Below are positions 13,387-44,912 of a stretch of DNA of 64,000 nt, in pieces (position 1 is the first letter of the stretch; each line of letters starts with the position of its first letter). The position numbers were made by a program, and so were the translations under genes. Origin of the DNA: Eggerthellaceae bacterium (GTDB lineage Bacteria; Bacillota; Clostridia; Christensenellales; UBA1242); the NCBI GenBank assembly GCA_963602685.1, contig CAVCJG010000005.1, positions 15,047 through 79,046 of the forward strand. Reading direction: 5' to 3'. A model generated the notes under the pieces. That model did no database searches, was not told the origin of the DNA, and saw nothing but the letters and a program-made list of their open reading frames with translations.

Positions 13387-13405
13387 AATCAAAAATAACA
13401 AAAAT

Positions 13406-13436
13406 AAGAAGGAAAATAATCCTTCTTTTTTGTTTT
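13406..13436 (+). terminator. Intrinsic terminator after the ABC-F gene
   Basis: AAGAAGGA / TCCTTCTT 8-bp stem (13406-13413 / 13420-13427) followed by a T-run. Confidence 0.6.
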
Positions 13437-13449
13437 AATTAAATTTTAA

Positions 13450-13478
13450 TTGACAAAAAGATAAATTAAACATATAAT
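13450..13478 (+). promoter_or_regulatory. Consensus sigma-A promoter (TTGACA-17-TATAAT) driving the glycine T-box leader
   Basis: TTGACA 13450-13455, 17-nt spacer, TATAAT 13473-13478. Confidence 0.7.
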
Positions 13479-13479
13479 C

Positions 13480-13636
13480 AGTCATGTAATTTAATCTTCG
13501 TGATGAAAAGGTTGGAATCTTGGAGCGAAGCGCCGCCAGCGAAACGGCAAACGAAGGCAAGGCAACTTGCGAATTAGGGTGGAACAGCGACCAATCAATC
13601 GCCCCTATGCTGAAAATCGGCATAGGGCTTTTTTAT
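13480..13636 (+). promoter_or_regulatory. T-box leader (tRNA-Gly sensing) with terminator
   Basis: Specifier context GAA-GGC-A (GGC at 13556-13558). T-box sequence AATTAGGGTGGAACAGCG (13572-13589). Terminator hairpin CCCTATGC / GCATAGGG (13603-13610 / 13620-13627) plus T-run, directly upstream of glyQS. Confidence 0.8.
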
Positions 13637-13668: not shown

Positions 13669-15051
13669 ATGAAAGCAACAATGGACAAAATCGTAAATCT
13701 CTGCAAAGGCAGAGGCTTCATCTTCCCAGGAAGTGAAATTTATGGCGGACTTGCAAACGCGTGGGACTACGGCCCTCTTGGTGTGCAAATGAAAAACAAC
13801 ATCAAAGCCGCTTGGTGGAAAAAGTTTGTGCAAGAAAACCCATACAACGTTGGGCTTGACTGCTCAATCTTGATGAACCCAACCGTTTGGCAAGCAAGCG
13901 GACACTTGGGCGGATTTTCAGACCCACTTATGGACTGCAAAAACTGCAAAGCACGTCACCGCGCCGACAATCTTATTGAAGAATACATGAAGAAAAAAGG
14001 AATCGAAGAAAACATCGCCGGCTGGAGCAACGAACAACTTGAAAACTACATTAAAGAAAAATCAATCGTCTGCCCTATCTGTGGAAAATCTGACTTTACT
14101 CCAATCAGAAAGTTTAACCTTATGTTTAAAACATTCCAAGGCGTAACCGAAGATTCAAGTTCAACAATCTATCTTCGTCCAGAAACCGCACAAGGAATAT
14201 TCGTAAACTTCAAAAATGTTCAACGTTCAACAAGAAAGCGTGTGCCTTTCGGAATCGGTCAAATCGGCAAAAGTTTCAGAAACGAAATCACTCCAGGAAA
14301 CTTCATCTTCCGTGTTCGTGAATTCGAACAAATGGAACTCGAATTTTTCTGCCAACCAGGCACAGACCTTGAATGGTTTAATTATTGGAAAAACTTCTGC
14401 CACAACTGGCTGCTTGAAATCGGAATTAAAGATGAAAATCTTAAACTTCGCGACCACGACCAAGAAGAGCTTTGCTTCTATTCAAAAGCAACAACCGACT
14501 TCGAATTTAAATTCCCATTCGGCTGGGGCGAACTTTGGGGCGTAGCCGACCGCACAGATTATGACCTTTCACAACACGCAAAATTCAGCGGAAAAGATTT
14601 AACTTATCAAGATCCAGTAACAAACGAAAAATACATTCCATATGTAATCGAACCATCACTCGGTGTAGAAAGACTTATGCTTGCATATCTTTGCAACGCC
14701 TATGATGAAGAACAACTTGAAAACGGCGAAAGCAGAGTTGTAATGCACTTCCACCCTGCAATCGCTCCATACAAAGTTGCAATCCTTCCACTTCAAAAGA
14801 ATCTTTCTGAAAAAGCCCGCACAATTTATGAACAACTCAGCAAACACTTTATGGTTGATTATGACGAAGCAGGCTCAATCGGAAAGCGTTATCGCCGTGA
14901 AGACGAAATCGGAACTCCACTTTGCGTAACAGTTGACTTTGACACACTTGAAAACGATACTGTTACTGTTCGTGACCGCGACACAATGCAACAAATCCGT
15001 CTTCATGTCGACGAACTTAAAGATTATATTTCAAATAAAATTGAATTATAA
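13669..15051 (+). CDS. glyQS: Glycine--tRNA ligase (dimeric class II type)
   Basis: 460 aa. N-terminus [34 protein letters not shown] and the class II core are typical of GlyQS. AAAGGAG RBS. Confidence 0.93.
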
Positions 15052-20051: not shown

Positions 20052-20585
20052 TTAACCTCCAAAGAACCCCGATAAATACTTGCAAAATCTATCAAACCAG
20101 TTTGACTGTTTTTTCATCTGGTCGGGACGCATAAGGTCGGTAGGAAAAGTTTCGATTAGTTCGGCAGTCTTGTTTCCCGAGTCGACGGAGTAGATTTTTT
20201 GCATGAGTTTTGCTGCGTTGATCGAGTAAGAAGATTGCGCAGCGTTGTAAGCGTTGATTGAATCTGCCAGTTCGACACCGGTAAACGCGCCGAGCCCGAC
20301 AACCAGTCCAATCAAAACAGCAGCGATGACGATTTTGAAAACGGATTTTTTAGGTTTAGGCTGTTTTTTCTCGACTGATTTTTCGAGTTTAAGAATGCGT
20401 TTTTTCTTTTCGGGAGTCACGTCAGGCAGCAAATCATAGTTCGGGGTTTCGATAACAATGTTTTCAGTTTTAGGAGACTCAACTTGAGCCTTGATAGAAG
20501 AAAGGTTGATTTTTTTACTCGCTTTTTCGAGTTTTTGTTCAACCTCAACATCTTTTTCAAGCAAAAGAATGTCTCTCTCTTTCAT
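20052..20585 (-). CDS. Bitopic membrane protein immediately upstream of the PBP (possible divisome component; FtsL position)
   Basis: Start placed at M44 of the track ORF (MKERDILLLEKD...), where AAGGAG lies 12 nt upstream. K/E-rich cytoplasmic part, one TM (IVIAAVLIGLVVGLGAFTGV), about 60-aa outside tail. 3-nt gap to the PBP start. Confidence 0.6.
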   Translation of the reverse strand: MKERDILLLEKDVEVEQKLEKASKKINLSSIKAQVESPKTENIVIETPNYDLLPDVTPEKKKRILKLEKSVEKKQPKPKKSVFKIVIAAVLIGLVVGLGAFTGVELADSINAYNAAQSSYSINAAKLMQKIYSVDSGNKTAELIETFPTDLMRPDQMKKQSNWFDRFCKYLSGFFGG

Positions 20586-20727
20586 ATGTATTCGAAACTC
20601 CTTTTCGATATGACGATTGTCAACGGAATGGGCAACGCAATAGCCGTTGCATGATGGCTGGCAAAGCCAGCATTTAATGCAGCATTTTATATGCTTGTCT
20701 TGCTTATTTATCAATAAAATGTGCGAT

Positions 20728-20905
20728 GCTAAACTTTTTCGGGGAAGGGCTTTGCCCGGCGAAAACAGTTTAGCGCGCCCTGATGCAACGCCGAAAGCGC
20801 CCGGGGCGCGTCAAGTTGCGGGAAAGGGGCACGTGGGGAAAACTGAATTTTAGCGGTTGCCCGCGCCTAGCGGGTGTGGCCGCGTTTAAAATTTGGTTGT
20901 CCCCG
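20728..20905. other. GC-rich, highly structured intergenic element (candidate ncRNA or cis-regulatory leader); family not recognised
   Basis: About 180 nt, clearly more GC-rich than its flanks. 13-bp helix 20728-20740 / 20761-20774 with one bulge. Helix 20775-20780 / 20804-20809 enclosing a small hairpin. Helix 20853-20856 / 20880-20883 around CCCGC / GCGGG (20860-20864 / 20870-20874). G-rich tract at 20818-20840. Confidence 0.45.
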
Positions 20906-20913
20906 CGAATGTC

Positions 20914-22953
20914 TTAGTGCATCCACGACGTATCTTCTTCTTCGTCTTCAACGAAGTTTGATATGCTTGTATAGAACGCATAGTTGGTTGTTGTGTCGTT
21001 TGGTCGCTTTGCAACGCTGTATGCTATTTCAAGATAACTGCAATCAAACTTGCTTTCATCCAAAACACCATACGCGTTGTATGATGAGCCTTCAAGAACT
21101 TTGTAATATCTTCTTGCATCGGTCAATCCCGAAATTGTAATCACACGTTGCTCTTTTGTTGTTTTAAGCGCGTCAGGTGTGTTGAACTTTCCGATTTTTA
21201 CAGGTTCGCCAAATGTGTATTGTTTTAGGGTTGGCTCAAACTCAAATTCAATCGTGCTTGTTCCCCCGACATCAACAGGGCCATCTTTAACACGAACCCT
21301 TTTTTGTATTTCATGAATTGGCGAGCCGTCACCTTTGTTCCAACGAATCGAAACAGTAATGTCCAAAAACTTTTCAGGGTCATAAATGTCGTCGCCGTCG
21401 TTGCCTGCGTCATATTTAATGTCAATCCAAATGTCAGTAACCGTTGTTTCGCGGCTTGGCACAATCACTGCACTTTGATATTCATATGGTTGTTTATTTT
21501 TAAATGGGTCACCACTTCCAAACTTTGAGAAGAAGGTTGTATATGGATAGTCGACAACTTCAGATGCAATGTATGCGTCGTCGATTTTTGTGTCAGTTGT
21601 TGGGTCGTCTTTATTTGCCTTTCCGATTGTTGTCAACTTTCCGCAATAGTCAACTATGGCAGTGACAACATCTTCGTAATAATAGTTTACTTGCTTTTTT
21701 ATGCCATCAACTGTATATTCTGACAATGCTTGTTCACCGATGACATTTTCGAGAATGTATTTTACAATGTCTTTTTTGTTTTTGGTTGTAAGACCAACGT
21801 AAGAGCCAAGACGATTGAATGTTGATTTAATGTCTTCAACAGCAACTTCGGCACTTGTCTTTCCGTTTACGCCAGCAGTTGCAGAGTAGCCGTCAATAGT
21901 GACAACCGGCGCACCGTTCTCACCCGTGTAAGTCACTTTCATATTTCTAGGAGTAATCCCCAGCACTATATTGTAAATAGCATATTCCAATGCACGGTTA
22001 TAGTCAGCGTTGTTTTTCGTTTGATTTCCAATAAATGTTTCTGAAAAAATCGATGGGCTAAATACTTTCCTATTATCATCGCCATTGTAATATGTTTGAA
22101 ATGTTTCAAAATCCAATTTTTTTTCATCGCTCGGCTCGAATTTTATAACCGGACGAGTTGATGTGCTCCCAGATTGATTTTGTCCGTATCTTAATATCCA
22201 TGGCAAATAATTCTCATTCGTGTGCAGTAAACTCCAATTCCAACCCCTTTGATAATCAGCCGCTATGTCGTAATACACAATAGTAGGAACGCCGTCAACA
22301 ACTTCGGCTTCTTCCAACTTTTCAGTTGTGTCTTTACTTTCTGCCTTTTTATAATAAGGTGTAACATTCACGATTTGATAACGCAAAGCATCATACCAAT
22401 AAAGATAACTATCTTTGTTGGCACTTTCAAAATCTTGTGCCAATTCATTCATTTTTTCATTGTTTGTATTTTGATATATTTCGTCAAAAATATTTGGATT
22501 GTTATAAGTAAAATTTCCATATACATAAAACAAGTATGTTAAAATGTCAGTCCCAAAATTGTAATAATATTCTCTGTTTGTTCCTTCTCCGCCATCTTTA
22601 TCAGTAACATTGCCATTAAAGTCGTATGACAAAGGCTTGCGGAGCACCTTAACATAGTCAACCGAAATTCCGCCGGTCATTTCTTCTTTCTTTTCTTCAT
22701 CATCGGTGTCTGGGTCAGAATCGTCGTCGTCATCGTCGTCATCATCGTCAGTTGCTGGCTTATGGTCTGGGTGAGTTGGCGGTGGATCTGACGTGCCAAT
22801 TTCGGTGTCTTGTTTTGGTGGAGTTGGTTTTAATCCGTCAAAAACACTGCATCCGACTGTGCAAGTAAAACAAAACACACTCATCAGCATTGCCAAGATT
22901 GCACGAGAAAAAAATGTTTTAATTTTTGTTTTCACACTTTTATGATATATCAT
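20914..22953 (-). CDS. Lipoprotein of unknown function (679 aa) with a poly-Asp linker
   Basis: Signal peptide ending in lipobox TVG-C, then a P/T/D-rich linker with D10 (ATDDDDDDDDDDSDPDTDDEE), then a large globular part. Confidence 0.8.
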   Translation of the reverse strand: MIYHKSVKTKIKTFFSRAILAMLMSVFCFTCTVGCSVFDGLKPTPPKQDTEIGTSDPPPTHPDHKPATDDDDDDDDDDSDPDTDDEEKKEEMTGGISVDYVKVLRKPLSYDFNGNVTDKDGGEGTNREYYYNFGTDILTYLFYVYGNFTYNNPNIFDEIYQNTNNEKMNELAQDFESANKDSYLYWYDALRYQIVNVTPYYKKAESKDTTEKLEEAEVVDGVPTIVYYDIAADYQRGWNWSLLHTNENYLPWILRYGQNQSGSTSTRPVIKFEPSDEKKLDFETFQTYYNGDDNRKVFSPSIFSETFIGNQTKNNADYNRALEYAIYNIVLGITPRNMKVTYTGENGAPVVTIDGYSATAGVNGKTSAEVAVEDIKSTFNRLGSYVGLTTKNKKDIVKYILENVIGEQALSEYTVDGIKKQVNYYYEDVVTAIVDYCGKLTTIGKANKDDPTTDTKIDDAYIASEVVDYPYTTFFSKFGSGDPFKNKQPYEYQSAVIVPSRETTVTDIWIDIKYDAGNDGDDIYDPEKFLDITVSIRWNKGDGSPIHEIQKRVRVKDGPVDVGGTSTIEFEFEPTLKQYTFGEPVKIGKFNTPDALKTTKEQRVITISGLTDARRYYKVLEGSSYNAYGVLDESKFDCSYLEIAYSVAKRPNDTTTNYAFYTSISNFVEDEEEDTSWMH

Positions 22954-31723: not shown

Positions 31724-31814
31724 GCAGAAGTACTCAAGTGGTCGAAGAGGCTTCCCTGCTAAGGAAGTAGGACGGGTAACTGTCGCGAGGGTCCGAATCC
31801 CTCCTTCTGCGCCA
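31724..31814 (+). tRNA. tRNA-Ser (anticodon GCU), class II with long variable arm, CCA encoded
   Basis: Acceptor GCAGAAG / CTTCTGC. Anticodon stem CTTCC / GGAAG with loop CTGCTAA. Variable arm GACGG-GTAA-CTGTC. T-arm GAGGG-TCCGAAT-CCCTC. Discriminator G plus CCA. Confidence 0.9.
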
Positions 31815-32653: not shown

Positions 32654-32688
32654 TAAAAAAGCACCTCCGCCGAGGTGCTTTATTTTAT
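32654..32688. terminator. Bidirectional terminator between convergent genes
   Basis: AGCACCTC / GAGGTGCT 8-bp stem flanked by an A-run and a T-run. Confidence 0.65.
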
Positions 32689-33276: not shown

Positions 33277-33367
33277 TTGTCTCTCCCCTTTTACTCTTTA
33301 ATTTTATCACTTTTAGTTTTGATTGTCAATATCAAAAAAACACCTTCGCAGGTGTTTTTGTTTTGAC

Positions 33368-34964: not shown

Positions 34965-35459
34965 ATGAAAATTTATTTTGCAAAAACTAAGGAAAACGCA
35001 GTTGTTCCTTCAAAAAGAGACGAAGATGCAGGCTTTGATTTTTACGCTTGCTTTGATGAAGATTATTTAAAATTCGAACCATTTGAAACTAAATACGTTC
35101 CAACAGGAATTGCATTTGCTGTTGACAAAAGACACTATCTTCAAATTGAAGAACGTTCGTCAACCGGCTTTAAAGGATTAAAGAAAAATTCAGGCGTTGT
35201 TGACAGCGGTTATCGCGGCGAAATCATTCTTTGCCTTTTCAACGCAAACACTGTTCCTTGCTATATTTCAAAACTTCCTTATGAAGAAATCGAAAAACTT
35301 GAAAAAGGAAAATTCGTTTATTTCTCATATGAAAAAGCAGTTGCTCAGGGCGTTGTTCACAAACTCGACAAAATGAAAACTAAAGAAGTTTCATACGCTC
35401 AACTTAAAAAGATGTCATCTCTTCGCGGAGATGGAAAAATGGGCTCTTCAAAAAAATAA
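34965..35459 (+). CDS. dut: dUTP diphosphatase (trimeric dUTPase)
   Basis: DAGFDFYA, GVVDSGYRGEI and C-terminal RGDGKMGSS motifs. Confidence 0.85.
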   Translation: MKIYFAKTKENAVVPSKRDEDAGFDFYACFDEDYLKFEPFETKYVPTGIAFAVDKRHYLQIEERSSTGFKGLKKNSGVVDSGYRGEIILCLFNANTVPCYISKLPYEEIEKLEKGKFVYFSYEKAVAQGVVHKLDKMKTKEVSYAQLKKMSSLRGDGKMGSSKK

Positions 35460-35477
35460 GTGCGTGGACTTTAAACC

Positions 35478-35587
35478 GCGCGACTTGCCTTCCGCCCCGC
35501 CGGCGGAAGAGCCGAACGCCCGCGTTCGGCCGACACTCTTGCAAAACAATTTTGCAAGAGTGCGCAAGTCGCGCGTTTTTTTGTTTA
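35478..35587 (+). other. GC-rich perfect four-way-junction (cloverleaf-shaped) element followed by a T-run; probable complex terminator or structured RNA/DNA element
   Basis: Outer 12-bp stem 35478-35489 / 35565-35576 encloses three hairpins. A: 35490-35497 / 35503-35510 (8 bp). B: 35512-35519 / 35524-35531 (8 bp). C: 35535-35547 / 35551-35563 (13 bp). All 41 pairs are Watson-Crick. T7 follows at 35577-35583. Confidence 0.6.
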
Positions 35588-35618
35588 CTAACATTGCAAA
35601 TTATGGTAAAATATATTT

Positions 35619-36056
35619 ATGGCATGGTGGAAAAAAGCACTCATATGGACAGCAGTGGCACTTGGGATATGCGTAATCATATTCTACGTTTTTTATTACA
35701 TCACAACCCACTATGAAATCCCAAGCATGACATTAGGCCAATACAACCTTACAAAAGTCGCTGAAAAAATATCGGGCGAAGAAACAGTCATCGAAGAATA
35801 CACAAACGGCGAATACTACATTGTCGTAACAGAAGACTTGTCGCTAGAAAGCCATTCTTCAACAAAGGGCATAGTCGAAAACGAAATCGGTTACAACTAC
35901 TTTTTGCATGGCGACGAACTTGTAATATTCTTGCCAACTGATGATGCCGACATCGCCTACACAGGTCACTACAACAACGGTTTAATCAAAATTTCTTACG
36001 TTCAAGATGAAATAGAATATGTATTCTACTATCAACTTGTGGAGCAAAGCGCATGA
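35619..36056 (+). CDS. Membrane-anchored hypothetical protein (145 aa)
   Basis: N-terminal TM (ALIWTAVALGICVIIFYVFYYI). 4-nt overlap with the nrdG start. No SD; the ATG lies 7 nt downstream of an extended -10 (TGgTAAAAT, 35604-35612). Confidence 0.6.
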   Translation: MAWWKKALIWTAVALGICVIIFYVFYYITTHYEIPSMTLGQYNLTKVAEKISGEETVIEEYTNGEYYIVVTEDLSLESHSSTKGIVENEIGYNYFLHGDELVIFLPTDDADIAYTGHYNNGLIKISYVQDEIEYVFYYQLVEQSA

Positions 36057-36739
36057 AAATTTTTGGACTTGAAAAACTTTCCATGGTCGACTTTGAAGGA
36101 CACTTATGCTGCACCGTCTTTACAGGCGGTTGCAATTTTAAATGTCCATTTTGTCAAAATTCCGACCTTGTAAAAATCACAAATTTATCGCCAATATCAG
36201 AGCAAGAATTTTTTGAATATCTTGAAAAAAGAAAAAATCTAATCGACAGCGTTTGCATATCTGGCGGCGAACCTACTCTGCAAAAAGACCTTCCAGCGTT
36301 TGCTGCAAAAATAAAAGAATTCGGGCTTTTAATAAAACTCGACACAAACGGCACAAACTTTGAAATGCTGAAAAACATGATAGACGAAAAGTTGGTTGAT
36401 TATGTTGCAATGGACATAAAAAACGCCCCATCGGCATATGAAAAAACGGCAGGCGCAAAAGTTGACCTAGCCGAAATTATCCGCAGTTTAAACTTGCTCA
36501 AAACGGGAGTCGTTCCGTATGAATTTCGCACCACTTTGGTTGCCGAGTATCACACAACCGAAACGATAACCGAAATGGCCGAATTTTTAAAAGGTGCAGA
36601 CAAACTTTATCTTCAACACTTTGTCGATGGCGGCACTTGCCTGCAACAAAATCTCAAACCGGTCTCAAAATCGGACGCTGAAAACTTTAAAACCATACTT
36701 TCAAAGCAAATCAAAACTGTTTATTTAAGAGGCTATTAA
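36053..36739 (+). CDS. nrdG: Anaerobic ribonucleoside-triphosphate reductase activating protein (radical SAM)
   Basis: FTGGCNFKCPFCQN CxxxCxxC cluster motif and SGGEPTLQ. Confidence 0.85.
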   Translation: MKIFGLEKLSMVDFEGHLCCTVFTGGCNFKCPFCQNSDLVKITNLSPISEQEFFEYLEKRKNLIDSVCISGGEPTLQKDLPAFAAKIKEFGLLIKLDTNGTNFEMLKNMIDEKLVDYVAMDIKNAPSAYEKTAGAKVDLAEIIRSLNLLKTGVVPYEFRTTLVAEYHTTETITEMAEFLKGADKLYLQHFVDGGTCLQQNLKPVSKSDAENFKTILSKQIKTVYLRGY

Positions 36740-36823: not shown

Positions 36824-38131
36824 CTATAGACTTTCTTTTATTTTCTTTTTAAATTTGTTTGTAAGTTCGATTTCCCATGCCAAATCGTCATATGTACCGT
36901 TAAATATTTCTTTTAACATCTTATTAAAAAGTGATTTATCAACGGGTTTAAACGGAATGTTGAAATTTATCAATTCATCAACCATCTCTGGTCTAAAATA
37001 TTCTTTTAAGCGTTCAATGGGATCGGTTTTGCGCCTACCCACTATTACAAGACTGTCGTTAACTAAATCCAATGGGAAACCAATTTTTTTCATTCTATTA
37101 TATTCTTCTGTTCCATTCACACAAATATATAAAGATCTAATGTGAAACTTTAAAGCTTCTTCATATTTCTCTTCATCTTCGAGAACATATGCCATTTCAG
37201 TATAAGCATTTTCTCCGTATCCGTTGACATCTTTTTTTAGATCTTTTTGACATTTTTGCCATCTCATATCATTATATGAGAATTTCTTTCTCTTCTCCAT
37301 GTATTCTTCAAGAGTAAGTTCTTCATCTCTTAGTGTATAATATTCCATTTCAACTTTATGATCTTCTATATACTTTTTGCCTGTATCAGAGACCCTGGAA
37401 ACTTTTTCATTTAATATCGATTCGACTACACTTATGGTTGTATTTCCAGCTATATCATTTATAATATTTTCTTTTTTCCCTGTCGCCTTGATACCAATTC
37501 TATTTGCTACATTTTTAAGCTCCGAAACCTTATAAATTGACAACATTTCTTTCAAATTGCAAGGTTCGTAAAAACCCTTTTCCACTAATTCCTTATGTAG
37601 TTTTTTCGGGTGATCCACACCTACTAAGCCGAACTCAAATTTTGCATACATATTATCTTTCATATATTTTGGGTCCCTTATAATTGGATATTTCATTAAA
37701 AATTGGCAGTATGCTCTAGATTCAATATATACGACATCGTTAAATGGTGTGTGTTCACTTATCGTAAAAGTAACAGCTGTAGTGATTATAGGCTCGCATA
37801 CGTGTGGCATGCTATCGTATGTTGTGTGTCTCTCTTTGGTTTCTGCTGTTTTCTCAGGTACAAGTTTATATACAAGTCTCCCATTCTGATATAAACCATT
37901 GTCGTCAAATGTATAAATAGTTTTTGCAAAGAATAATTTGTCTGGTTCTACAAGAGAATTTCCTTTAATCTGATATAGCCTAGTTCCTAATATTAATCCA
38001 GGTTTACATACATAACCATCTTTTATTACATAAACTGGTCGACCAAATATACCCGGTGTTTTTACAACATTATTTTCATAAATATAAACAGTTTTCCCAA
38101 ACATACCTGGTTCTTTAATCTCAATTCTCAT
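36824..38131 (-). CDS. Hypothetical protein with five N-terminal about 18-aa PG-x-FG-...-Y repeats and a SAP-like motif
   Basis: KEPGMFGKTVYIYENNVV / KTPGIFGRPVYVIKDGYV / CKPGLILGTRLYQIKGNSL / VEPDKLFFAKTIYTFDDNGL / YQNGRLVYKLV. Mid-protein KVSELKNVANRIGIKATGKKENIINDI is SAP-like. Confidence 0.7.
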   Translation of the reverse strand: MRIEIKEPGMFGKTVYIYENNVVKTPGIFGRPVYVIKDGYVCKPGLILGTRLYQIKGNSLVEPDKLFFAKTIYTFDDNGLYQNGRLVYKLVPEKTAETKERHTTYDSMPHVCEPIITTAVTFTISEHTPFNDVVYIESRAYCQFLMKYPIIRDPKYMKDNMYAKFEFGLVGVDHPKKLHKELVEKGFYEPCNLKEMLSIYKVSELKNVANRIGIKATGKKENIINDIAGNTTISVVESILNEKVSRVSDTGKKYIEDHKVEMEYYTLRDEELTLEEYMEKRKKFSYNDMRWQKCQKDLKKDVNGYGENAYTEMAYVLEDEEKYEEALKFHIRSLYICVNGTEEYNRMKKIGFPLDLVNDSLVIVGRRKTDPIERLKEYFRPEMVDELINFNIPFKPVDKSLFNKMLKEIFNGTYDDLAWEIELTNKFKKKIKESL

Positions 38132-44756: not shown

Positions 44757-44885
44757 CACAAATCCTATTTTACTGTTGTGCGATGTAGGCAACGCATATC
44801 GGTCGCATAATCGTGTAGCTATATGGTTGATATATAATTCCACATACAAAAATACAATCACATGGGATTGTTTCTAAAACAAATA

Positions 44886-44912
44886 AAGAACTGCCACGCA
44901 GTTCTTTTTTAT
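44886..44912. terminator. Strong hairpin terminator (bidirectional) in the noncoding gap
   Basis: AAGAACTGC-CAC-GCAGTTCTT (9-bp stem), with T-runs after it on both strands. Confidence 0.65.

Follow-up and report, generated by a model that had tools for sequence, protein, structure and literature searches.

A branched stem-and-U-tract element 3' of dut in uncultured gut Clostridia: a predicted intrinsic terminator conserved in shape

INTRODUCTION

Why does a GC-rich cloverleaf in which every pair is Watson-Crick lie between a dUTPase gene (dut) and nrdG in a gut bacterium of the Clostridia, and is it a terminator, another kind of structured RNA, a feature of the DNA itself, or a recent insertion? 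The question was raised by a first-pass annotation, made from the sequence alone, of a 64-kb stretch of DNA (the whole of which is called the window here). GC-rich palindromes at transcript 3' ends include REP/BIME sequences, intergenic palindromic repeats, and the uptake-sequence terminators of Neisseria and Haemophilus, and such palindromes can stabilise or terminate transcripts. Intrinsic terminators are modelled as single hairpins, so that standard predictors would overlook a branched one or score it wrongly. In WebGeSTer, they are defined by a loop of 3 to 9 nt and have a median stability of about -18 kcal/mol (PMC3013805).

RESULTS

A perfect cloverleaf between dut and nrdG

The features of the locus are given below, in their order along the window.

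34965-35459, plus strand: dut (dUTPase), an ORF with a PF00692 match (E 1.3e-12)
35477-35488, plus strand: 5' arm of the outer stem, P1, CGCGCGACTTGC, which pairs with 35564-35575 over 12 bp
35489-35509, plus strand: hairpin H1, 8 bp (35489-35496/35502-35509, CTTCCGCC/GGCGGAAG), with loop CCGCC at 35497-35501
35511-35530, plus strand: hairpin H2, 8 bp (35511-35518/35523-35530, GCCGAACG/CGTTCGGC), with loop CCCG at 35519-35522
35534-35562, plus strand: hairpin H3, 13 bp (35534-35546/35550-35562, CACTCTTGCAAAA/TTTTGCAAGAGTG), with loop CAA
35564-35575, plus strand: 3' arm of P1, GCAAGTCGCGCG
35576-35582, plus strand: T7 run (U-tract), 0 nt 3' of P1
35584-35612, plus strand: predicted sigma-70-type promoter, TTTACT, 17 nt, TAAAAT, with TG at 35604-35605 (extended -10, TGgTAAAAT)
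35619-36056, plus strand: ORF145, a conserved 145-aa ORF between the element and nrdG, with the N terminus MAWWKK
36053-36739, plus strand: nrdG, with a Radical_SAM/Fer4_12 match

Reading and folding the sequence reproduced every detail of the fold first described, from the 12-bp stem and the hairpins of 8, 8, and 13 bp to the linkers and the T7 run. The cloverleaf (35477-35575) holds 41 Watson-Crick pairs, with no G·U pair and no mismatch. Nine of the 12 pairs of P1 are G-C, and the 75 nt that it encloses are folded as the three hairpins, joined at the junction by linkers of 0, 1 (A), 3 (CGA), and 1 (C) nt. The element had been placed immediately after the dut stop codon; it does lie 3' of dut, although P1 begins 17 nt downstream of the TAA (35457-35459).

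The cloverleaf is both the minimum free energy (MFE) structure and the centroid structure in ViennaRNA. Its RNA MFE is -76.6 kcal/mol, compared with -42.0 +/- 3.4 kcal/mol for 200 dinucleotide-preserving shuffles, none of which was as stable (0/200; z = -10.2). Folding with DNA parameters gave z = -11.1 for the plus strand and -9.4 for the minus strand. The G+C content of the element is 65.7%, against 36.9% for the window. Its topology, with a closing stem and three hairpins, is that of tRNAs and tRNA-like cloverleaves, from which it differs by its 12-bp closing stem, its 3- to 5-nt loops, and the lack of conserved D, T, or anticodon features. That it is not a tRNA, as had been proposed, is borne out by ARAGORN, which gave only a tRNA-Ser at 31724-31814, and by Rfam, in which no tRNA or tmRNA match was found at E values up to 10.

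Likeness to and departure from known intrinsic terminators

Canonical (L-shaped) Rho-independent terminators likewise consist of a GC-rich stem followed by a U-tract, a few to tens of nt past a stop codon, and their arms are likewise perfect and conserved within species, with variable loops. The element departs from them in what its stem encloses (75 nt of three hairpins, instead of a loop of 3 to 9 nt) and in its stability (about -69 kcal/mol, versus a median of about -18 kcal/mol; PMC3013805). Its position and its stem and U-tract are, thus, those of an intrinsic terminator, and its enclosed region is not that of a simple hairpin with a 3- to 9-nt loop. The U- and V-shaped tandem-hairpin terminators of WebGeSTer also place several hairpins at one 3' end, but they do so side by side, whereas the hairpins here are nested, and the U-tract adjoins the stem that encloses them rather than the last hairpin. 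The element, therefore, lies outside all five WebGeSTer classes (L, I, U, V, and X; PMC3013805).

A consensus terminator scan found at the element only a weaker local hairpin (35556-35580). The ordinary terminators of the window are hairpins of 9 to 10 bp with loops of 3 to 4 nt, with A and T runs on either side (such as those at 32658-32681, 33336-33359, and 44885-44907), and the cloverleaf is exceptional for its genome. Our search of the literature found no description of a branched, cloverleaf, or multi-stem terminator, although its coverage was incomplete and it is weak evidence of absence.

A single-copy element found only after dut

A protein identical to the Dut of the window is encoded on at least 22 public contigs, and the loci of ten of these (L001-L010) were fetched. 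Further loci came from Dut homologues at 84 to 61% identity, and 80 more were added by scanning, with a Dut alignment, a collection in which each species is represented by one genome. The source species was not among the genomes of that scan, and the nearest records in the genome collection are metagenome-assembled genomes named "uncultured Clostridia bacterium".

No second copy of the element was found in the 64-kb window by repeat search, pattern search, or covariance model, and no similar structure was found elsewhere in 592 kb of related loci, on either strand, by a structure script. The script took perfect stems of at least 7 bp that abut a T-run, with a span of 45 to 160 nt, and the candidates were then folded; the dut elements scored -0.62 to -0.73 kcal/mol per nt, the next candidate scored -0.48, and the rest were background. 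A covariance model built from the variants of the species (R1) recovered all of the four-way-junction carriers searched except L106, and nothing else. As the element is palindromic, R1 matches both strands, and its strand-mixed alignment was left out of the pair counts given below. Scanning metagenomes with a conserved 18-mer, GGCAACTTGGCGTTTTGC, returned 34 matches, 32 of which were chance matches in unrelated GC-rich DNA; the two genuine ones both follow dut, and all of the occurrences found in public data lie 3' of this gene. Neither a collection of phage genomes (blastn) nor viral contigs (exact 20-mer) yielded a match, and hence nothing points to a phage origin. When set against L015 and L021, where the site is empty, the element showed no flanking target duplication.

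Rfam 15, searched with the whole window at gathering thresholds and with the element at E values up to 10, gave only chance-level matches. The best was RCNMV_TE_DR1, on the minus strand, at 19.7 bits, compared with a threshold of 80.

Two other parts of the window were noted in these searches. First, a T-box leader at 13401-13635, upstream of a gene that starts at 13669, was missed by the Rfam scan of the window at gathering thresholds. It has the AGGGTGGAACAGCG motif and a terminator hairpin, and it scores below the threshold (30.4 bits, versus a gathering score of 93; E 3e-5). Second, another GC-rich intergenic island (20735-20915) lies between two minus-strand ORFs (20052-20714 and 20914-22953) that are without a Pfam match. 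Its fold is better than those of shuffles, with z of about -3.6 on either strand, and the island has no Rfam match at E values up to 1, and is unlike the dut element.

Within the species, stems are held and loops are flipped

Each of the ten further contigs of the species whose locus was fetched carries the element. In the within-species set, formed by the window and the ten contigs with an identical Dut protein, only 4 of the 57 stem columns of P1, H1, and H2 are variable, compared with 25 to 31% of third codon positions in the neighbouring genes (41/165 in dut, 45/146 in ORF145, and 69/229 in nrdG). The stems, which vary far less than do synonymous sites, are thus subject to purifying selection, and the element is not a young one. 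Seven of the nine loop columns of H1 and H2, by contrast, are variable. H1 illustrates this best: none of its stem columns vary within the species and all five of its loop columns do, with the loop occurring as CCGCC, as its reverse complement GGCGG, and also as GGCGA. The loop of H2 likewise occurs, in different strains, as the reverse-complement pairs CCCG/CGGG and CCTG/CAGG, and a comparison of L001-L010 with window positions 35497-35501 and 35519-35522 shows that each loop flips independently of the other. Two stem alleles of H3 occur in the species, along with mixed forms that carry a G·U pair, a bulge, or an A·C pair.

This pattern indicates recurrent small inversions and, as read from loop orientation only, is consistent with template switching at hairpins. 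Template switching makes and maintains perfect RNA hairpins and inverts their loops, and fully inverted loops, together with simultaneous multi-base compensation, are its signature (PMC8794818). The element resembles the hairpins described in that study (Monttinen and Loytynoja 2022) in its perfect stems, joint compensatory changes, and inverted loops. The mechanism has been seen mainly in rRNA and microRNA, whereas its target in this case would be a terminator-like four-way junction. Further, across 118,019 genomes, perfect inverted repeats are more than 12-fold enriched after bacterial transcription ends, where their arms are conserved and their spacers are rich in single-nucleotide variants (PMC13155455). 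Since perfect stems are, thus, typical of terminator hairpins, a lack of mismatches is no sign of youth. The first-pass annotation had held that the absence of mismatches and G·U pairs was atypical of an evolved RNA and fitted a young element; template switching would account for the perfect stems instead.

Across lineages, the shape outlasts the sequence

At least seven diverged lineages (L014, L018, L020, L103, L105, L106, and L109), all from uncultured gut Clostridia and with Dut identities of 70 to 84%, carry a cloverleaf 3' of dut. Dut identity to the window is 81% in L014, 72% in L103, L105, and L020, 71% in L018/L019, and 70% in L106; the metagenome contigs L109 and L131 also carry the four-helix architecture after dut. 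The carriers fold as four-way junctions (z of -5 to -11), each with 33 to 43 Watson-Crick pairs and, at most, one G·U pair. P1 is 10 to 12 bp long and, in the other lineages, starts 1 to 19 nt past the dut stop codon. A run of five to eight Ts follows P1 after 0 to 1 nt in all eight of the P1-bearing lineages, including the reduced L011, and P1 with its T-run is the most conserved feature of the module. No conserved A-run was found 5' of P1 among the lineages compared.

The homology of P1 is still recognisable (CGCGACTTGC versus GGCAACTTGGC). Specifically, its 5' arm is homologous to CACGCGACTTGC in L014 and to GGCAACTTGGC in L018, L020, L103, L105, and L106, and a change from G-C to A-T is compensated on the opposite arm. 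The same holds for H1 (CTTCCGCC, GTTTCCGCC, GTTTTGCC, and GTTTTGCTT), in which changes are compensated on the other arm. H2, by comparison, is of unrelated sequence in the other lineages, where it is still a helix of 7 to 15 bp, and the place of H3 is taken by an unrelated helix of 7 to 10 bp. Stem changes, then, fall on both arms, with some being compensatory and others being wholesale replacements. Alignments of all of the variants, or of H2 and H3 alone, by MAFFT/RNAalifold were structurally wrong, with the H2 and H3 sequences being unalignable, and covariation could be counted in this way for P1 and H1 only. Pairs were, instead, counted by a script that anchors helices by index, a procedure that makes the "compensatory" counts somewhat too high where there are indels. 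Conservation between lineages does not extend to any nucleotide of the loops or junctions. A riboswitch or another ligand-sensing attenuator was considered and rejected, given that no unpaired position is conserved and the loops vary in seven of nine columns.

Some relatives have less than the full structure. In L011-L013 (Dut identity 84%), P1 (CACGCGATTT/AAGTCGCGTG, with one U·G pair) and a run of six Ts are kept, H1-H3 are gone, and the interior holds only a small AT-rich hairpin. L100 (74%) and L102 (71%) have a spacer of 34 to 37 nt that contains the promoter only, without a terminator. In L015-L017 (71%) and L021 (68%), the next gene starts 8 to 15 nt from dut, with a Shine-Dalgarno-like sequence and no promoter; in L015 and L021, this gene is the same one as in the window (ORF145). 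Dut loci at 56% identity or less have plain hairpin terminators or different neighbours. On a neighbour-joining tree of Dut, the carriers form one clade with L011, L100, and L102, to which L015 and L021 are sister. The simplest history is one ancient gain of a terminator-plus-promoter module, followed by secondary reductions. As judged from these loci, the module would split a co-transcribed gene pair into two separate units.

The surrounding genes, a predicted promoter, and the probable transcribed strand

The upstream neighbours of dut are on the opposite strand, so dut forms a one-gene unit. Downstream of the element, the -35 hexamer of the candidate promoter starts 8 nt after P1; as a consensus match only, the candidate agrees with the consensus at 9 of 12 positions and has the TG. 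A gap of 6 nt, without a Shine-Dalgarno sequence, separates its -10 box from the ATG of ORF145, and on the strength of this geometry, the ORF145-nrdG mRNA is predicted to be leaderless. The arrangement (a -35 box right next to the T-run, then an extended -10 box, with 5 to 6 nt from there to the ATG) is shared by 10 lineages, as seen in the window, L001-L014, L018, L020, L100, L102, L103, L105, and L106. An 81-aa ORF (35431-35676) that runs through the element was taken to be spurious from the outset, in agreement with its having no family match and its crossing the stop codon, the terminator, and the promoter.

Beyond the dut-nrdG core, gene content changes. A 435-aa ORF without a Pfam match (36824-38131, minus strand) lies between nrdG and a gene for a 300-aa pyridine-nucleotide-disulphide oxidoreductase. 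It is missing from nine other contigs of the species (L001-L010 compared), and in L006, its position is held by a DNA methylase gene and an NgoFVII-like restriction gene; the slot downstream of nrdG appears to be strain-variable. Upstream of dut, there is a large serine recombinase gene in L015 (829-2322), restriction-modification and HTH genes in L018 (33-2130), and a TetR regulator gene in L011 (1816-2409) and L014 (421-975). As the upstream genes differ by lineage and the downstream slot varies, both flanks of the core are variable.

Which molecule and which strand carry the structure was approached through the pairs that are not Watson-Crick. Around six independent G·U pairs were counted on the plus strand (two in L001 and one each in the L002 type, L014, L018, and L011), versus one A·C pair (L006). 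This excess favours a plus-strand RNA, but it is suggestive and not significant (one-sided p ~0.06), and G·U makes up about 1% of the pairs across the variants. Conservation of the T-run is confined to the 3' side of P1 on the plus strand. Differences in MFE between the plus and minus strands are dominated by loop bonuses. In L018, L020, and L103, the element starts 1 to 3 nt past the dut stop codon, which leaves no room for a promoter of its own, and its transcript would, therefore, form the 3' terminus of the dut mRNA. For the same reason, a small RNA gene with its own promoter was rejected.

DISCUSSION

We propose, with a probability of about two in three, that the element is an intrinsic terminator and insulator, in which a closing stem surrounds a three-hairpin junction, and that it ends a monocistronic dut transcript. 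The anatomy of the element and its position agree with the earlier suggestion of a strong terminator that separates dut from the nrdG operon. From these, together with its single copy and orthology, a shape that is kept as the sequence changes, the constraint on its stems, its inverted loops, and the geometry of the adjoining promoter, we infer that transcription ends at the T-run. The annotation had named, as the outcome that would count against its own reading, a unique element conserved as a terminator with compensatory changes in relatives; the element fits this description, and yet to call it an "ordinary" terminator undersells a conserved four-way junction.

A mechanism can be put forward for such a terminator. 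It would be Rho-independent, with P1 (10 to 12 bp) as its GC-rich stem and the U-tract directly 3' of it, and its "loop" would consist of three short-looped and nearly perfect hairpins that form an RNA four-way junction. H1, H2, and H3 would fold in turn on leaving the polymerase, thereby bringing the 5' arm of P1 beside its 3' arm, such that P1 could close while the U-tract is being transcribed and the transcript could be released. The stable fold (about -69 kcal/mol) may also block 3'-to-5' exonucleases, and the module of about 145 nt would separate dut from the predicted leaderless ORF145-nrdG transcript. During replication, template switching would match one arm to the other and invert the loops, with selection for pairing acting on top.

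Several observations sit less easily with termination as the function. P1 spans 75 nt, which is beyond the loop sizes that define intrinsic terminators, and long-range stems are slower to fold. L100 and L102 have no terminator at the end of dut at all. The G·U content of about 1% is very low for selection at the RNA level only, and both DNA strands fold alike. Moreover, as P1 and a U-tract suffice in L011, termination alone does not explain why three perfect hairpins are present in seven lineages.

This last point leads to a functional structured RNA, of which termination would be only part of the role (for example, a stable 3'-UTR-derived RNA, a protein scaffold, or a determinant of the processing or stability of the dut message). 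We consider this unlikely, although several features speak for it. The three inner hairpins, with linkers of no more than 3 nt, have been kept in seven lineages despite the turnover of H2 and H3; the stems are constrained within the species; a plain P1 with a U-tract, as in L011, would do for termination; and the stability is far above that of the median terminator, at about -18 kcal/mol (PMC3013805). Against it, no unpaired nucleotide is conserved, with the loops and junctions changing freely even among strains of the species, which leaves no sequence-specific binding or ligand pocket, and there is no Rfam match. Further, H1-H3 have been lost in L011, and the whole element has been lost in L100 and L102, with the flanking genes being retained, and an element that starts 1 to 3 nt past the dut stop codon in L018, L020, and L103 is without a promoter of its own.

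Less probable still is a role at the level of the DNA, in which the palindromes would extrude as hairpins or cruciforms and either modulate the ORF145-nrdG promoter or serve as a protein-binding or recombination site or as a replication signal. The nearly complete Watson-Crick pairing of the stems (~1% G·U) and the folding of both DNA strands (z of -11 and -9) would suit such a role, as would loops of 3 to 5 nt, which are as short as cruciform extrusion needs, and a structure that stops 8 nt short of the -35 box. The recurrent loop inversions would, in addition, demonstrate hairpin formation in DNA in vivo, but ordinary terminator hairpins also have inverted loops and perfect arms (PMC13155455; PMC8794818). 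The outer stem would need about 100 bp to be unwound, which is unlikely in duplex DNA, while a transcript is indicated by the one-sided T-run and by the plus-strand excess of G·U over A·C. The stem sequences differ between lineages, which rules out a sequence-specific binding site, and L100 and L102 have the promoter without the element. Of the DNA-level element first suggested, then, one part stands, in that the loop inversions reveal the mark of DNA-level processes, and a primarily DNA-level element is unsupported.

A young mobile or repeated palindromic insertion (REP/BIME- or MITE-like) that happens to terminate, as the annotation had suggested from the absence of mismatches and G·U pairs, is very improbable and largely refuted even though nested perfect palindromes, a G+C content of 65.7% in surroundings of 36.9%, and a gain at some point, implied by sister lineages without the module, would fit it, given that the element is old, occurs once in 64 kb and nowhere further in 592 kb of related DNA, is absent from viral and phage collections, has genuine metagenome matches only after dut, is orthologous at about 30% Dut divergence, is under purifying selection in its stems, and has no target duplication. 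REP/BIME sequences and uptake-sequence terminators are dispersed, multi-copy, and conserved in sequence, whereas this one is specific to its locus, has a single copy, and is conserved in its shape instead.

If the branched terminator that we prefer is conserved as such, it would show that selection for termination, or for protection of the 3' end, can act on long-range closing stems. The locus also provides a case of perfect stems that persist through selection for pairing and template-switch conversion, with the loop inversions visible within one species. Further, the relatives form a natural deletion series, running from the full four-way junction through P1 only (L011) and promoter only (L100 and L102) to neither (L015 and L021). 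The compact combination of terminator, promoter, and leaderless start has a possible use as a genetic insulator.

A bolder and more doubtful proposal is that the element represents an undescribed class of 3'-end RNA module in uncultured gut Clostridia, in which the role for which the inner hairpins are selected exceeds termination. Were this true, the inner hairpins might make termination near-absolute and pass the released polymerase to the promoter 8 nt downstream, a hand-over that would couple the expression of dut to that of the leaderless ORF145-nrdG transcript. Another possibility is that they give rise to a stable 3'-UTR RNA that binds protein.
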